Of a DNA stretch of 64,000 nt, positions 1,447 to 63,781 are shown piece by piece. The position numbers were made by a program, and so were the translations under genes. Origin of the DNA: Escherichia phage RB16. How positions within the stretch are numbered: the first letter of the stretch is position 1; every line of letters begins with the position of its first letter. Where the stretch lies: the sequence record NC_014467.1; one strand, 5' to 3'. A model generated the notes under the pieces. That model made no database searches and had not been told where the DNA came from. It saw nothing but the letters and a program-made list of their open reading frames with translations.

Positions 1447-1484
1447 TTTCTCGTTCCTTTTGTCTGTTCCGTTTCAACACCCCT

Positions 1485-1518
1485 AATATACAAAAACCCC
1501 TCGCGATATGCAAGGGGT
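1485..1518 (-). promoter_or_regulatory. terminator-hairpin/promoter cassette (-35 TTGCAT inside hairpin, 17-nt spacer, -10 TATATT)
   Basis: minus strand reads CCCCTTGCAT ATCGCGAGGGG TTTTTG TATATT; -10 rc of 1485-1490, -35 rc of 1508-1513. Confidence 0.5.
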
Positions 1519-1524
1519 TTTCGA

Positions 1525-7940: not shown

Positions 7941-7955
7941 AATATAACCCTCACG

Positions 7956-7975
7956 AAAAGCCCCTTTCGGGGCTT
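7956..7975 (-). terminator. intrinsic terminator-like hairpin
   Basis: AGCCCC-GAAA-GGGGCT followed by TTTTCG on minus strand. Confidence 0.5.
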
Positions 7976-7981
7976 GATTAA

Positions 7982-8269
7982 TCAGTGTCCGAAGATGTGT
8001 TTAACAGACTCAGCGAAAGCGTAGAACACTGGATTGTTTTCTTTCAACATCGCTTCCGATTTCAGAAGGTAATCGCTTTTGAACTTAGTACCGAACAGGC
8101 AGTAAGAAAACGATTTGTCCCAGTAAAAGCAGTTATAACCACCATCAACAAATCTCACTTCAACCAACAAATAACCCACATCTTCCGGTTTGGTATTTGA
8201 ATAATCTTTCAGAAGGTTAGCACTTGCTACTTTGTATGCGTTACCAGCAACCAAATCGTTATAAGTCAT
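7982..8269 (-). CDS. hypothetical protein (95 aa)
   Basis: ORF track. Confidence 0.4.
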   Translation of the reverse strand: MTYNDLVAGNAYKVASANLLKDYSNTKPEDVGYLLVEVRFVDGGYNCFYWDKSFSYCLFGTKFKSDYLLKSEAMLKENNPVFYAFAESVKHIFGH

Positions 8270-8319
8270 GATGTGTTCCTTTTCAGTTTCGTTTCGATAA
8301 AGCTAAGGTATCACTGTTC

Positions 8320-8758: not shown

Positions 8759-9013
8759 TCAAAAAATATGCGTAAGGTTTCCGGCGTTGTTCGGGTATTC
8801 CACGTAATCGCCACGGAATATGTTTAGATCGGAATCGAACTTAAATCCTTGACCCCTGACATCCTCATGACGGGAAATATAAGAACATCCGTACTTTTGT
8901 AGATCTTCCATGTACATTTCAGTGATGCGTTTTGCTTTGTCCATTCCCCGACCTTCAAATCGGGAACGGCGATAATGTTCCAGCAAAAACGCATATAACT
9001 TTTCGTATGTCAC
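8759..9013 (-). CDS. hypothetical protein (84 aa)
   Basis: ORF track. Confidence 0.4.
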   Translation of the reverse strand: MTYEKLYAFLLEHYRRSRFEGRGMDKAKRITEMYMEDLQKYGCSYISRHEDVRGQGFKFDSDLNIFRGDYVEYPNNAGNLTHIF

Positions 9014-21214: not shown

Positions 21215-21231
21215 GTATACCTCACGAAAAA

Positions 21232-21247
21232 AGGGGCCGAAGCCCCT
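21232..21247 (-). terminator. intrinsic terminator after phoH
   Basis: AGGGGC-TTCG-GCCCCT + TTTTTCG on minus strand. Confidence 0.55.
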
Positions 21248-24357: not shown

Positions 24358-24370
24358 ATTTCACCTACAA

Positions 24371-24390
24371 AAAAGCCCCTTTCGGGGCTT
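24371..24390 (-). terminator. intrinsic terminator
   Basis: AGCCCC-GAAA-GGGGCT + TTTTTTG on minus strand. Confidence 0.55.
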
Positions 24391-24699: not shown

Positions 24700-24727
24700 A
24701 TATTATCATACTGGGGATTCATGTCAA
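24700..24727 (-). promoter_or_regulatory. sigma70-like promoter (TTGACA, 16-nt spacer, TAATAT)
   Basis: minus strand TTGACATGAATCCCCAGTATGATAATAT about 40 nt upstream of ATG at 24659. Confidence 0.5.
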
Positions 24728-27774: not shown

Positions 27775-28049
27775 TTTACACTCCGTTTCAGTTTACGTTC
27801 GTCAGCCAGTTCTTTTTTGTACAGTTTAATGTACTTCCCGTTAAGGATGCGAAGCTGTTGGAAAACTTTGTTGCATAAAGCACGTTTCGCTTTGTATTCC
27901 GGCGTATTGCGGATTGATTCGATCGTCATACCCATTTCATTTTTAGGGTAAGCGCTCAATTCCCTGCCGATCTCCCTGTGCCAGTTGCTTAACTGGTCAC
28001 GCTTTGCTTTGTACTCTTCAAAAGTTAACATAACAATCTCCGGTTTCAT
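27771..28049 (-). CDS. hypothetical basic protein (92 aa)
   Basis: ORF track. Confidence 0.4.
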   Translation of the reverse strand: MKPEIVMLTFEEYKAKRDQLSNWHREIGRELSAYPKNEMGMTIESIRNTPEYKAKRALCNKVFQQLRILNGKYIKLYKKELADERKLKRSVK

Positions 28050-28096
28050 TTCTATGGGTGTAAGATAACATCATCCCACACCCAGCGCAAGCGATT

Positions 28097-28440: not shown

Positions 28441-28688
28441 TTGATACGTACCGCGTTAAAAGCCTGGTTGCGCAGTTCATAAGCCTGTTCAAGCTGTTCA
28501 GTAGTGAACAGAGGACTATCGGTGTTAGTGGTGAAACTGCAAATGGTTTTGTTGTCGGCGTTTACTTCTTCAACAACGATTTCGTAACCCCAGATCCCGC
28601 TATACTCACATTTCACGTTCCGGTACTTGATGTAAACTGCTGCAACATCTTCTTTTTTGTAGTTCCGGCTTTTGTAGATGATTTCCAT
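28437..28688 (-). CDS. hypothetical protein (83 aa)
   Basis: ORF track; conserved leader motif upstream. Confidence 0.45.
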   Translation of the reverse strand: MEIIYKSRNYKKEDVAAVYIKYRNVKCEYSGIWGYEIVVEEVNADNKTICSFTTNTDSPLFTTEQLEQAYELRNQAFNAVRIK

Positions 28689-28742
28689 GATATCCTCCTT
28701 CGTTTCGATGTGTGTACAATAACAGATCAGGGTTATCGAGTT

Positions 28743-28916
28743 TTAGCAATTCGTGCTAATTACAGAAGCATTTCCATTTTTAAGCGAACGTTCCAGGGAT
28801 TCGGCGGTAACAGTGAATTCAGGGAACCACTGACCGATATTGTTTGACCACCACCAGACATTTACGCCGTCAGTTTTGAATTTGATGTTCAGGTAGTTAC
28901 TGAAAATGTGTTTCAT
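28743..28916 (-). CDS. hypothetical protein (57 aa; start trimmed)
   Basis: ORF 28743-29012 trimmed at MKHIFSNY to avoid overlap. Confidence 0.35.
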   Translation of the reverse strand: MKHIFSNYLNIKFKTDGVNVWWWSNNIGQWFPEFTVTAESLERSLKNGNASVISTNC

Positions 28917-28926
28917 GTTATTCCCC

Positions 28927-29205
28927 TTATGCCATTTTCTTAGCGATTTTCCACGCGGCTTTGAACTCAGGAACATCTTCAATCTCAACCCAGAAACCAG
29001 ATCCGAAACCATCGTTGTAGCAAGGACAACCGTCGCAGTAGTTTTCCCAGGTCATCACTTCACCACCAACAGAAGCACCAGTTTCCATCGCACGTAATGC
29101 ATCTTCAACCTTTTCCAGTTTTTCGGCGTTGTCGTCGTAAATGATGAAATACCATTTGCCGTTGTATTCGTTACCCAGTTTGATTGCTTCGCGAACAAGT
29201 TTCAT
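28927..29205 (-). CDS. hypothetical Cys-containing protein (92 aa)
   Basis: CDGCPCYNDG motif; start set at MKLVREAIK. Confidence 0.4.
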   Translation of the reverse strand: MKLVREAIKLGNEYNGKWYFIIYDDNAEKLEKVEDALRAMETGASVGGEVMTWENYCDGCPCYNDGFGSGFWVEIEDVPEFKAAWKIAKKMA

Positions 29206-29243
29206 GATGATTTCCTTTTTGTCTGTTTCGTTTCGATGTGTGT

Positions 29244-29272
29244 AATATAACAAAACCACTCACCATAGGCAA
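29244..29272 (-). promoter_or_regulatory. promoter cassette (-35 TTGCCT, 17-nt spacer, -10 TATATT) plus conserved leader
   Basis: minus strand TTGCCTATGGTGAGTGGTTTTGT TATATT ACACACATCGAAACGAAAC. Confidence 0.45.
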
Positions 29273-29298
29273 GGGGTTTCTTTAACAAAAAGTGCTAT

Positions 29299-29901
29299 TT
29301 AATAGTATCCCGGATCTTTGAAGTGTGCTTTCACATATCGCAGAATTTCATGAAGCATCTGAGTTTGCTCATGTCCACGTTGTGAAGCCATATCGATCAT
29401 GACGCGAGTCATTTCGACGTTCTCCAGGCTCGCTATACGCTGTTTTAAGGCTTCGTTTTCCTTTTCCAACTCAACCATACGGTTGTATGCGTTGACTCGC
29501 TCCAGAGGCATATCAGGGCGCTCTTTGAGGACACGGGCGCGGGAAACTTCACATTCATGGTTTGCTTTCCAGTGATCACGTTCACCAGCAAGTTTATCGT
29601 TCTCCTGATGTAGACGCACAATCTCTTTAAGGAGGCGTTCAGTGGTATCAGGATCAAACGAAACCATATACTGCATCAACGATTCCAGCCACATATTCTC
29701 TTGAACTGACTGCACCGCTTTAGGCCCGATAATGGTAAACGCGCGTTTCTTCATGTTGCTACCGCAACCGTAGTTAACGTTACCCGTAATCGAACCTGGT
29801 TGATTCGTACCATCCCACTTGTCACCGATAACAGGTTTTACTTGCTGAATAGCACGATTCAGCATTTCGAATTCTTCATCTAAAATCATTTCATATCCCA
29901 T
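29299..29901 (-). CDS. hypothetical coiled-coil protein (200 aa)
   Basis: long heptad-rich stretch ...LKEIVRLHQENDKLAGERDHWKANHE...LEKENEALKQRIASLE. Confidence 0.45.
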   Translation of the reverse strand: MGYEMILDEEFEMLNRAIQQVKPVIGDKWDGTNQPGSITGNVNYGCGSNMKKRAFTIIGPKAVQSVQENMWLESLMQYMVSFDPDTTERLLKEIVRLHQENDKLAGERDHWKANHECEVSRARVLKERPDMPLERVNAYNRMVELEKENEALKQRIASLENVEMTRVMIDMASQRGHEQTQMLHEILRYVKAHFKDPGYY

Positions 29902-30290
29902 AATTCATATTGTGAGCGAAGGATAGCGTAAAGGCTACCGATATGGATTGTGTCTACCGGACACTGGAAAAGATCCCCGCGCATCATGTTAAACTCGATA
30001 TCGTTACGTTCAACATAGTTACCGATCATTGATGTCCAACCCATCACCAGGTTGTAACCATCTTCTGATAACCCATAAGCCAGCCTAACCATGATACAAC
30101 GCTTATCAGCCAGTTCTACGCGCATATGGGTACTGGTATGAGTGACCTTGTTCGGGAATCTGCGAAACATTTTAGTAAGGAGTTTGGCGGTTTCAATATT
30201 GAACGCCAGTTCTTGATCCTTACTGGTCTGGTTATCATGACGACGATCCAGATATTTCTTCATTTTCGGATTCAGATTCACATGTTGCAT
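29886..30290 (-). CDS. hypothetical protein (134 aa)
   Basis: ORF track. Confidence 0.45.
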   Translation of the reverse strand: MQHVNLNPKMKKYLDRRHDNQTSKDQELAFNIETAKLLTKMFRRFPNKVTHTSTHMRVELADKRCIMVRLAYGLSEDGYNLVMGWTSMIGNYVERNDIEFNMMRGDLFQCPVDTIHIGSLYAILRSQYELWDMK

Positions 30291-30472
30291 AATATATCCC
30301 TCACAGGTTTATAACGTTCTTTTCCAGTGCCGTTGCATGAACTGCATTTTGGCGATCCGTAGTTATCATATCGCCCAGACCCATTACATGCAACACATTT
30401 CCGTAATTTACAGCCATACACGAACCGATTATTACATGCGGTTCGTGCTGCCTTGCGCTCATGGAAGTTCAT
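30278..30472 (-). CDS. small zinc-finger protein (CxxCxGxG repeats)
   Basis: CVACNGSG and CSSCNGTG repeats; ATGA overlap with next gene. Confidence 0.4.
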   Translation of the reverse strand: MNFHERKAARTACNNRFVYGCKLRKCVACNGSGRYDNYGSPKCSSCNGTGKERYKPVRDILCNM

Positions 30473-30672
30473 ACTTTGTTGTACACCTGAACAACCCACA
30501 TTTCGATATTTGGTGAGTAAGTAACGTTCACCATCGGCATAGTGCGGTATTTGTAAGCGGCTTTGTACGCGTCAAGTTCAGTCGGAACACAGAAAGAGAA
30601 ACCGTCGTCATAACGTTCTGCGTTAGAAACTTCACAACCAACTACAGCAGCAATATTTTTGTTCATGTTCAT
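30469..30672 (-). CDS. hypothetical protein (67 aa)
   Basis: ORF track; preceded by promoter cassette. Confidence 0.45.
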   Translation of the reverse strand: MNMNKNIAAVVGCEVSNAERYDDGFSFCVPTELDAYKAAYKYRTMPMVNVTYSPNIEMWVVQVYNKV

Positions 30673-30708
30673 GATGTTTTCCTTTCTGTGTTTCGTTTCG
30701 ATGTGTGT

Positions 30709-30745
30709 AATATAACAAAGCCCTTACAGTAATACAAGGGCTTTT
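30709..30745 (-). promoter_or_regulatory. terminator-hairpin/promoter cassette (-35 TTGTAT, 17-nt spacer, -10 TATATT)
   Basis: minus strand AAAAAGCCCTTGTATTACTGTAAGGGCTTTG TTATATT ACACACATCGAAACGAAAC. Confidence 0.5.
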
Positions 30746-34336: not shown

Positions 34337-34477
34337 TCAGTAGTCACCCATAGGTTGAGAAGAAGCAACGCTCAATACGCGGAAAGAACATTTGTTCCAT
34401 TCACAATATGCTTTCGCACAGTGAACACTACCTTTCATCACAAACCCGTTTGAGAACACCAACCAGTAAAGTTTCAT
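34337..34477 (-). CDS. small Cys-containing protein (46 aa)
   Basis: MKLYWLVFSNGFVMKGSVHCAKAYCEWNKC...; start follows promoter cassette and SD AGGAGG. Confidence 0.35.
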   Translation of the reverse strand: MKLYWLVFSNGFVMKGSVHCAKAYCEWNKCSFRVLSVASSQPMGDY

Positions 34478-34504
34478 GATTACCTCCTTTGTTTCGACAC
34501 CCCT

Positions 34505-34545
34505 AATATAACAAAAGCCCTTGCACGAATGCAAGGGCTTTTTCA
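34505..34545 (-). promoter_or_regulatory. terminator-hairpin/promoter cassette (-35 TTGCAT in 9-bp stem, 18-nt spacer, -10 TATATT)
   Basis: minus strand AAAAAGCCCTTGCATTCGTGCAAGGGCTTTTGT TATATT. Confidence 0.5.
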
Positions 34546-35234: not shown

Positions 35235-35252
35235 GTGTACTCCAAATGAAAA

Positions 35253-35268
35253 AGGGGCCGAAGCCCCT
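35253..35268 (-). terminator. intrinsic terminator
   Basis: AGGGGC-TTCG-GCCCCT + TTTTT on minus strand. Confidence 0.5.
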
Positions 35269-44318: not shown

Positions 44319-44996
44319 ATGAATTACGATAGGATATATAAAGCTCTTATAGATAAGCGGAGGAAAACTCCGCTTAAAGACGGATATAAGGAACATCATC
44401 ACATCATTCCTAAATCTATGGGCGGTAGTGATGATTTTGATAATATGGTGTATTTGACAGCGAGAGAACATTTCGTTGCGCATCTTTTACTCGCTCGTAT
44501 ACATGGTGGTAAGATGTGGTTTGCTGTTGCTATGATGTGTGGGCGTGGATCAAGTAGCGCGAAAGGCGTTGTCCCTACTTCTCGAATATATGAGTTAGCC
44601 AAAAAACGGGTAGCCAATGAAAGAAGTATATTGTTTTCTGGGAAATTACATCCATTATACGGAAAGCCTTGTACAGAACAACGAAGAAAACGCATAGCTG
44701 AAGGACGTAAAGGGAAAACGCATACTCAGGAAACGAAACAGAAAATGTCTGAATCGAAGAAAGGATATAAACATACTCAGGAGACGAAACAGAAAATGTC
44801 TGAGTCACGGAAGAGACAAACACCTCCTACTCTGGGTAAAAAGTTACCTTCTCCATCAATCGAAAAAAGAAAGAAACTTAGTGAGGCTATTAAAAATCAG
44901 CCAATCATCAAATGTCCATATTGCGGGTTAGAAAGTAACAGCAAAGGAAATATGGTGAGGTTTCATTTCGACAACTGCAAATATAGGAAACCATGA
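44319..44996 (+). CDS. HNH homing endonuclease (Mob-like)
   Basis: HNH core EHHHIIPKSMGGSDDFDNMVYLTAREHFVAH; internal duplicated HTQETKQKMSES motif. Confidence 0.8.
   Translation: MNYDRIYKALIDKRRKTPLKDGYKEHHHIIPKSMGGSDDFDNMVYLTAREHFVAHLLLARIHGGKMWFAVAMMCGRGSSSAKGVVPTSRIYELAKKRVANERSILFSGKLHPLYGKPCTEQRRKRIAEGRKGKTHTQETKQKMSESKKGYKHTQETKQKMSESRKRQTPPTLGKKLPSPSIEKRKKLSEAIKNQPIIKCPYCGLESNSKGNMVRFHFDNCKYRKP
44721..44807 (+). repeat. 35-nt near-perfect tandem duplication inside HNH gene
   Basis: CATACTCAGGA(A/G)ACGAAACAGAAAATGTCTGA(A/G)TC at 44721-44755 and 44773-44807. Confidence 0.8.

Positions 44997-61438: not shown

Positions 61439-63781
<2,343 letters not shown>

Follow-up and report, generated by a model that had tools for sequence, protein, structure and literature searches.

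Composite regulatory elements termed PeSLs have been described for the T4-type phages RB49/phi1, T4/PST and KVP40/nt-1 (Arbiol, Comeau, Krisch 2010; Comeau 2014; PMC2839356, PMC4122927). These intergenic composites comprise a stop codon, a terminator stem-loop that borders on or overlaps with a strong early promoter for sigma-70, a Shine-Dalgarno (SD) sequence and an ATG; they precede small ORFans of hyperplastic regions and are linked to indels. Recombination between such elements, with mini-circles as products, also belongs to this type. Cassettes assignable to this known type from their predicted terminator, promoter, SD sequence and ATG are present in a 64,000-nt stretch of the Escherichia phage RB16 genome (NC_014467.1), the whole of which was analysed and is referred to as the window. 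At least seven of them share a 12-nt sequence near the predicted 5' end of their transcripts (TCGAAACGAAAC in its exact form, here termed leader box), which may represent a consensus initial transcribed sequence.

As far as the accessible parts of the PeSL descriptions go, they name promoter, stem-loop and SD sequence, and mention neither a conserved transcribed box nor the upstream ATAGCAC..TAAA box that precedes some of the cassettes reported here. Unlike in these descriptions, the -10 hexamer of the present cassettes is TGn-extended and fused to the T-run of the terminator. The RB49-like phage KFS-EC possesses the same leader box as the window cassettes. Searches of the literature with the leader-box and upstream-box strings, and for marboxes together with phage promoters, yielded nothing relevant; the leader box as a conserved transcribed element, of which no description was found in the literature searched, adds one feature to this kind of cassette, and the upstream box, so far known as a repeat of T1-like phages, a second one.

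Two further systems are comparable. The box shares with the region downstream of the T7 A1/A3 and T5 N25 promoters its location between +1 and ~+15, where the sequence modulates promoter escape. The latter are, however, single promoters, whereas here a near-identical 12-mer stands at many promoters across phage families. Target sites of T4 RegA and RegB are likewise located in the 5' leaders of early mRNAs. RegB targets GGAG, and RegA sites are AU-rich and lie over the AUG; such sites are found at the SD sequence or start codon, whereas the leader box is positioned by the promoter.

Leader-box cassettes in the window

The region is ~94 % identical to that of Cronobacter phage GAP161 and matches sequences of 173 T4-like phages of the RB43/RB16/Lw1/GAP161 group (genus Pseudotevenvirus), with Klebsiella, Enterobacter, Cronobacter, Citrobacter and E. 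coli as hosts. Between ~26 and 35 kb of the window, all genes are on the minus strand and consist of small hypothetical open reading frames (ORFs), typical of a hyperplastic early region. The initial annotation had recognized here a 20-21-nt motif, almost identical at three sites, located just 3' of a predicted -10 box in the transcribed leader, 5' of the SD sequence, and conserved beyond the needs of a -10 box. Its similarity and position were confirmed, as was its conservation, which goes far beyond those needs, but the number of copies was underestimated. The 21-mer GTTTCGTTTCGATGTGTGTAA occurs exactly at 29225-29245 and 30690-30710 (plus strand); the third copy, previously delimited as 28701-28716, is real and extends over 28697-28717 with three mismatches, all at its ends, and a fourth at 28043-28063 is degenerate. 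No match to the 21-mer arose in 100 dinucleotide shuffles, and the 18-nt core TACACACATCGAAACGAA (minus strand), exact in three copies (28699-28716, 29227-29244 and 30692-30709), is expected 0.14 times (shuffle controls being first-order). All copies are intergenic and, read on the minus strand, which is the coding one here, are bordered by a -10-like hexamer on one side and by the SD sequence/ATG on the other; the initially noticed ones have the layout TGtTATATT-ACACACA-TCGAAACGAAAC-(A-rich)-SD-ATG. On the minus strand, the motif consists of a discriminator, a predicted start site and TCGAAACGAAAC, and thus includes the 12-13 bases with which the transcript is predicted to open.

Repeat finding and a simple scan retrieved the transcribed part, T(C/T)GAAAC(G/A)(A/G)A.., also at 34486-34497, 8286-8297 and 1466-1477, each 7 nt past a -10 hexamer and with differing discriminators and hairpins. 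The window thus holds at least seven rather than three cassettes with leader box:

29225-29236, minus strand: leader box TCGAAACGAAAC, exact copy, predicted +2 to +13 of the mRNA of the Frd.1-like gene (92 amino acids, aa; ATG at 29205)
29237, minus strand: predicted start site A, from the pyrimidine(-1)/purine(+1) rule and the annotated T7 and phi80 promoters
30690-30701, minus strand: leader box TCGAAACGAAAC of a 67-aa gene (ATG at 30672), predicted start site at 30702
28697-28708, minus strand: leader box variant TCGAAACGAAGG, directly adjoining the SD sequence GGAGG of an 83-aa gene (ATG at 28688), predicted start site at 28709
28043-28054, minus strand: degenerate leader box TAGAAATGAAAC, 3' of TTGCGC-17-TATCTT, 86-aa gene (ATG at 28031), repeat family D4
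34486-34497, minus strand: leader box variant TCGAAACAAAGG, discriminator AGGGGTG, predicted start site at 34498, ATG at 34477, repeat family D1
8286-8297, minus strand: leader box TCGAAACGAAAC, 3' of GTTTGCAT...TACCTT, predicted start site at 8298, ATG at 8269, repeat family D15
1466-1477, minus strand: leader box variant TTGAAACGGAAC, ATG at 1446, repeat family D1

The genes downstream of the cassettes encode proteins of 46-95 aa, whose orthologues, where mapped to GAP161, are annotated as hypothetical. A duplicated coding segment as origin of the motif was ruled out, the seven downstream proteins sharing no significant similarity (best E 0.027). Nor is the motif distributed at random.

Position relative to promoter and start codon

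In all seven window copies, a TAnnnT hexamer precedes the first base of the box at a constant distance of exactly 7 nt. The ATG, by contrast, follows at variable distances (20, 20, 23, 28, 29, 31 and 31 nt; 24-100 nt in other phages). The same register is observed in the complete genome of GAP161: 13 of its 99 T[CT]GAAAC heptamers are in promoter context, and all of these are located exactly 7 nt after the -10 hexamer. The 13 copies are found on both strands, are spread over 8.8-175 kb and are preceded by differing -35, -10 and hairpin sequences. A census of the IMG/VR collection, which required the exact 12-mer and covered at least 120 loci with biased and partly redundant counts, provided 98 unique contexts among the matches listed; of these, 83 have CA at -1/+1 and 90 have a pyrimidine followed by a purine there. 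Further support comes from annotated promoters of other phages. In the T7 record, the A1 transcript begins with ATCGAGAGGG (AUCGAGAGG, ATCGAGAGG) and the A3 transcript with ATGAAACGACAG (AUGAAACGACAG), and the -10 hexamer annotated in the phi80 record lies 7 nt upstream of the box. The early-promoter logo presented for RB43 by Nolan et al. is, according to its figure legend, numbered relative to a putative start site. Taken together, the fixed -10 register, the pyrimidine-purine start context, the long untranslated leaders of some box-bearing transcripts (see below) and the T7 A1/A3 starts argue for a function at initiation or at the RNA 5' end rather than in translation.

Anatomy of the cassettes

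The following promoter and terminator features were assigned:

29244-29249, minus strand: -10 hexamer TATATT preceded by TGt (extended -10), with -35 hexamer TTGCCT at 29267-29272 within the hairpin
30709-30714, minus strand: -10 hexamer TATATT preceded by TGt, with TTGTAT 17 nt upstream within the hairpin
28716-28721, minus strand: -10 hexamer TATTGT preceded by TGt, without -35 hexamer; marbox-like box at the -35 position
30717-30744, minus strand: GC-rich stem-loop plus T-run, terminator-like, abutting and overlapping the promoter (-14 kcal/mol, z -4.4; terminator scan)
29252-29280, minus strand: stem-loop plus T-run between upstream box and -10, containing the -35 hexamer (terminator scan)
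34513-34542, minus strand: stem-loop plus T-run of the 34497 cassette (-20.5 kcal/mol, z -5.3)
1492-1522, minus strand: stem-loop plus T-run of the 1477 cassette (-19.9 kcal/mol, z -5.7)

Four cassettes are thus immediately preceded by a stable GC hairpin with T-run, in agreement with what has been described for PeSLs (PMC2839356, PMC4122927). For three of the hairpins, folding energies range between -14 and -20.5 kcal/mol (z -4.4 to -5.7); that of the 29236 cassette, folded jointly with a small hairpin of the upstream box as a 55-nt stretch, reaches -12.8 kcal/mol (z -2.3), and the 28708 cassette has a weak 6-bp hairpin only. The T-run merges into the TGn-extended -10, and the -35 hexamer, where present, lies within the hairpin. 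In the promoter scan, TTGCCT-17-TGtTATATT and its relatives scored 11.6-15.1 bits, one of them being retrieved also by the consensus scan. Structure prediction for the leaders (predicted +1 to AUG), as proposed in the initial annotation, returned a minimum free energy of 0, i.e., no predicted structure, and the leaders contain almost no U. A hairpin operator in the leaders was therefore rejected.

The cassette of the 92-aa Frd.1-like gene (MKLVRE..., 28927-29205, minus strand) can be compared between phage families, since homologues of this gene stand behind the same cassette in T1-like phages. Gene and cassette are common to T4-like (Pseudoteven- and Slopekvirus) and T1-like phages, with 70-72 % amino-acid identity (contigs L006, L140-L147; L137-L139, L143). 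The T4-like and T1-like ORFs are 72 % identical and their third codon positions 52 %; in the cassette, the upstream box is identical at 20/20 positions and the leader box plus flank (TCGAAACGAAnCAGACAAAA) at 19/20, while hairpin, -10 and discriminator differ, a pattern that points to selection on the conserved parts. In T4-type genomes, the gene follows a promoter of T4 style, TACTAT-agcccta-TCAAAACAAAGGAG, whose transcript start is related.

Promoters collected irrespective of the leader box point in the same direction. The 97 non-redundant promoters picked by upstream box and -10 only yield the consensus ..cc.CA tcgaAAc.AAaca, i.e., the leader box, which is thus the consensus of a graded element rather than an all-or-none site. 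Variants among the collected promoters include TTGAAGCGAAAC, TCAACAACGAAC, CACCAAACAAC and AACGAAACGAAAGG. These collection scans required exact patterns and many contigs are related, so that the counts do not represent independent events.

Distribution among phages

A 41-nt query retrieved the element from 789 phage records. Same-register examples were inspected in Slopekvirus KP27 (annotated there as 'promoter'), the T1-like phages tonn and HazelMika (Drexlerviridae) and Certrevirus POP15; the RB49-like Krischvirus KFS-EC has TTGACA-17-CATAAT-ACACCCA-TCGAAACGAAAC in the same register. The PL promoter of phi80-type lambdoid (pro)phages accounts for 54 of the 98 IMG/VR contexts among the matches listed. 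Here, operators and -10 hexamers vary by immunity type, but every transcript opens with the box, and ATCGA(C/T) comes next. The corresponding leader is several hundred nt long, carries nutL (phi80) or a putL-like antiterminator RNA (HK639) and has no nearby ribosome-binding site. The phages sharing the box have little in common beyond the use of host RNA polymerase and other host machinery.

The PL promoter of HK022 has putL, and the box was not found there; the box was therefore rejected as part of put. The phi80-type leader (L017, 1553-1840; phi80 PL itself, L148) is common to different immunity regions, its first 45 nt being exact in HK225 and two Enterobacter phages. The AUCGA...UCGA(U/C) arrangement of the lambdoid leader could form a 5'-terminal hairpin. 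No Rfam family reached its gathering score anywhere in the window, and the lambdoid leaders returned only neighbouring host sRNAs.

Scanning a 596-Gb collection of bacterial genomes for the box produced mostly chance matches, those in Enterobacterales representing phi80-type prophages. In Shewanella chromosomes (L174, L179 and L210), TATAAT-N7-TCGAAACGAAAC precedes a chromosomal gene that is conserved, and the sequence recurs in inverted form, GTTTCGTTT, 5' of the -10 hexamer. This looks like a palindromic operator-like repeat around a chromosomal promoter, apparently unrelated to the phage element.

Possible function of the leader box

The reading favoured here, with a probability of about 0.5, is that the leader box is the consensus of the initially transcribed bases in a strong-promoter cassette that is mobile and of PeSL type, and that it facilitates escape from the promoter as well as an accessible 5' end poor in U. 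On the coding strand, the cassette is composed of (i) an optional marbox-like box, (ii) a GC hairpin and T-run ending the upstream unit, (iii) a TGn-extended -10, usually TATATT, (iv) a 6-nt C-rich discriminator, (v) the predicted A(+1) followed by UCGAAACGAAAC, and (vi) an A-rich spacer, SD sequence and AUG. This anatomy, the fixed -10 register, the occurrence in several phage families and the unstructured leaders were observed here, while the exact start site and an influence on escape and expression are inferred. The promoter would hold the host sigma-70 RNA polymerase very tightly by an extended -10, a consensus -35 or an activator site, and escape would then limit output. The conserved 20-mer would act in cis as initial transcribed sequence: a purine-rich start without TG or TA step would speed escape and leave the mRNA 5' end unstructured and nearly U-free. 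The copies would be kept alike by selection and by recombination of whole cassettes, within the genome as well as between phage families.

This role is favoured by the preferences determined in a massively parallel escape assay (PMC5961368), in which escape is slowed by TG or TA near +5/+6 and favoured by GA or GG, and the yield of productive transcripts correlates with the content of purines. Purines predominate in the box, GA occupies +4/+5, and neither TG nor TA is present. Several observations weigh against it, however. The CG steps at +3/+4 and +8/+9 are mildly unfavourable for escape in two of the three promoter contexts of the same assay; the start sites of this phage are predicted ones; and escape normally needs a certain composition rather than an exact 12-mer, so that the identity of the copies may reflect a sequence-specific partner or recent horizontal spread. 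Moreover, of the early promoters that appear credible (roughly 12-15), only ~7 have the box, three copies not retrieved by the promoter scan included, and strong box-less promoters exist (24705, 34279), i.e., the box is not required for early transcription. The scan itself proposed 19 candidates in the window, 4 of them with the box; several of the box-less ones are located among late structural genes and probably arose by chance. Should the box indeed act on escape, it would constitute a small, transferable module for the beginning of transcripts, acquired by many unrelated phages of enterobacteria through convergence or exchange. Such a module could help to predict early promoters and start sites in phage genomes and to build strong expression cassettes. 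It would also offer a clean natural test of the control of promoter escape by the initial transcribed sequence.

The two box-less promoters at 24705 and 34279 (minus strand; first base of -10) have the structures TTGACA-16-TGnTAATAT and TTGACA-16-TGnTAAAAT and share another start, GTAGACAA. A stretch 5' of their SD sequences, AGACAAAAGGAA, recurs after the box in many cassettes.

That the exact 12-mer recurs across unrelated phage families, beyond what composition would demand, and always at the extreme, single-stranded 5' end with a single U, would also be understandable if pppAUCGAAACGAAAC (5'-ppp AUCGAAACGAAAC) served as an RNA tag. A host factor, which could be an RNA-binding protein or a 5'-end enzyme such as RppH or the RNase E 5' sensor, would recognize it sequence-specifically and thereby stabilize or mark early transcripts. 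The constant AUCGA(C/U) behind the box of lambdoid leaders, which could close a 5'-terminal AUCGA/UCGAU hairpin, could suit this idea, as 5' stem-loops may play a part in 5'-end protection. We nevertheless consider such a tag somewhat unlikely, as no candidate factor was found, variants occur at many positions in otherwise identical cassettes (TTGAAACGGAAC, TCGAAACAAAGG, TAGAAACGAAAC), in T1-like promoters the position of the ACGAAAC core shifts by 1-2 nt with respect to the start, and the searches revealed neither an Rfam family nor complementarity to rRNA. Retention mainly for homology is a further explanation: box plus flanking bases (up to 26 nt, CATCGAAACGAAACAGACAAAAGGAAC) would be kept as a portable patch for swaps of promoter plus ORFan by PeSL-mediated shuffling, within a phage or between co-infecting ones, with no particular role in expression. 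The PeSL literature supports this idea, GAP161 and Certrevirus POP15 have one and the same 26-nt leader in front of genes that are unrelated, the same cassette and homologous gene occur in T1-like and T4-like phages, and the homology between window and GAP161 breaks at cassettes (1539, 8256, 13675 and 28762). However, the enrichment of breakpoints is modest (~4-5 of ~42 versus ~1.5 expected, ~3-fold, in one pairwise comparison), and a mere patch leaves unexplained the strict 7-nt register, the pyrimidine-purine start context, the occurrence at lambdoid PL, the T7 A1/A3 starts and the status of the box as a consensus; it is therefore judged unlikely.

A DNA operator and a RegA/RegB-type site appear even less probable. 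The box at +2 to +13 is conserved, contains a tandem pentamer, (GAAAC)2, and lies just 3' of the start site, a position typical of repressor binding; a host or phage DNA-binding protein could repress or modulate the early promoters there. Yet the box is common to phages without shared regulators, including lambdoids whose PL already possesses CI operators, its graded variants resemble a consensus element rather than an operator, and we know of no matching protein, which renders this explanation very improbable. The initial annotation had proposed a translational operator, a site for an RNA-binding protein or an RNA processing signal, with regulation by T4 RegA/RegB as precedent. GAP161 encodes RegA, and GGAG is present in the SD sequence directly after the box in 2 of the 7 window leaders; however, the annotation of GAP161 contains no regB. 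GGAG is absent from the box itself, which is not AU-rich, contains a single U and was not found in the AUG region. Its spacing is constant with respect to the -10 hexamer and variable with respect to the start codon. It also precedes long untranslated leaders, as in lambdoids, related sequences open the T7 A1/A3 transcripts, and the box is found in T1-like, Certrevirus and lambdoid phages, which to our knowledge have no RegA/RegB. Together with the lack of leader structure, this leaves the proposal without support, and it must be regarded as highly unlikely.

An epsilon-type translational enhancer was rejected as well, since the box has no complementarity to E. coli 16S, 23S or 5S rRNA. Its pairing with 16S rRNA (E. 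coli rrsB, L386) is weaker than that of all 300 box shuffles (-5.9 versus a mean of -9.8 kcal/mol), which may reflect avoidance of rRNA pairing, or chance.

Marbox-like upstream box

Two of the three initially noticed cassettes, as well as many T1-like promoters, are preceded by a conserved upstream box, ATAGCAC-N3-TTG-N-TAAA:

29279-29298, minus strand: upstream box ATAGCACTTTTTGTTAAAGA, perfect marbox match, forward; 31 nt from -10 and 8 nt from -35
28740-28759, minus strand: upstream box TTAGCACGAATTGCTAAAAC, perfect 15-nt marbox match, forward; 20 nt from -10

The box fits the published marbox consensus sequences (PMC3709825, PMC12052159) AYnGCACnnWnnRYYAAAY and GCAnnWWnTGnnAAA (10/10 specified positions) at every specified position of the 15-mer, and is identical at 14/15 positions to the marbox of marRAB (supplement of PMC12052159). 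Perfect marbox 15-mers are located at 28742-28756 and 29281-29295 of the window; the GAP161 genome contains 14 versus 3.5 expected, with upstream-box sites at 8887, 9335, 55230, 92575, 92947 and 140105. The upstream box is always oriented with transcription. Among 44 promoters bearing it, the gap between 15-mer and -10 is 20 nt in 36, 21 nt in one, 30 nt in one and 31 nt in six cases (five of the latter being copies of one orthologous promoter), with none other between 8 and 60 nt. Promoters with the 20-nt gap have no -35 hexamer, and in T1-like phages the upstream box replaces it, as expected if an activator occupies this position in the way Rob does at micF (PMC9178005). In the micF promoter of E. 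coli, the model of a class II MarA/SoxS/Rob promoter, GCACTGAATGTCAAA-20 nt-TAGAAT has the same gap as the 28708 cassette. The 32-nt gap of the zwf promoter is merely close to the 30-31-nt phage variant. In contrast to marbox promoters, the phage box is nearly palindromic (TAGCA-N5-TGCTA) and could suit a different, dimeric protein. The upstream box may be regarded as a putative site for a host stress activator (MarA/SoxS/Rob).

An RNA hairpin or terminator was rejected as an alternative identity of the upstream box, because only 5-6 weak pairs can form and the few discrete spacings to the -10 speak for a site in the DNA. It also does not align with the UP element consensus.

A 21-nt direct repeat of the T1-like phage TLS, aaATAGCACnnnTTGnTAAAA, is identical to the upstream box of the two window cassettes and of ~100 collected T1-like promoters. 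Its orientation is that of transcription, and start codons follow at ~76 nt. In the TLS report, in which only three sigma-70 promoters could be found in the genome, the function of the repeat was left open (stoperator, enhancer site or UP element), and it was reported only in T1-like phages (PMC11447400). The present data extend the repeat to T4-like phages and add the marbox match at micF spacing; no paper linking it to the marbox was found in the literature search.

One may tentatively speculate that the cassettes form a horizontally mobile expression module depending on a host activator, although this appears less probable than a role of the leader box in escape. A perfect class II marbox (for Rob, MarA, SoxS or RamA, host activators responding to antibiotics and oxidative stress) would replace or assist the -35 hexamer, the leader box would be a sequence-specific partner rather than a generic escape sequence, and virulent T1-like and T4-like phages infecting Enterobacteriaceae would wire part of their early programme to the stress and drug-resistance state of the host. 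The upstream box may then matter more than the leader box, and the open function of the TLS repeat would be explained. Phages that are candidates for therapy against Klebsiella, Enterobacter and E. coli would read MarA, SoxS, Rob and RamA, the drivers of multidrug resistance, and phage-antibiotic interactions would become directly testable.

Nine T1-like contigs (L010, L026, L061, L097, L102, L111, L291, L372 and L377) harbour promoter arrays composed of a marbox-like box and a -10 without -35 hexamer. In many of these promoters, an inverted repeat flanks the -10, with covarying arms (GGGAT/ATCCC, GGCC/GGCC, GGGGTT/AACCCC and GGGGCT/AGCCCC) that place the -10 in the loop of a hairpin ending at the start site.

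Insertions and further repeats

Comparison with GAP161 delimits one insertion next to a cassette:

28763-28926, minus strand: 164-bp insertion relative to GAP161, alignment breakpoints at 28762/28927

This insertion contains an extra small ORF that has its own SD sequence and no separate promoter. It adjoins the upstream box on one side and the stop codon of the Frd.1-like gene on the other. Apart from the cassettes, the window harbours two families of near-identical short GC hairpins, presumably terminators, at 473-495, 7953-7975 and 24368-24390 (AAAAGCCCCTTTCGGGGCTT) and at 21228-21247 and 35249-35268 (AAAAAGGGGCCGAAGCCCCT). One copy (7949-7993) forms an island of homology to GAP161 within non-homologous flanks. 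In the late-gene part of the window, a 51-nt direct repeat (80 % identical) is arranged in tandem at 44709-44810, with a weaker third copy at 61997.

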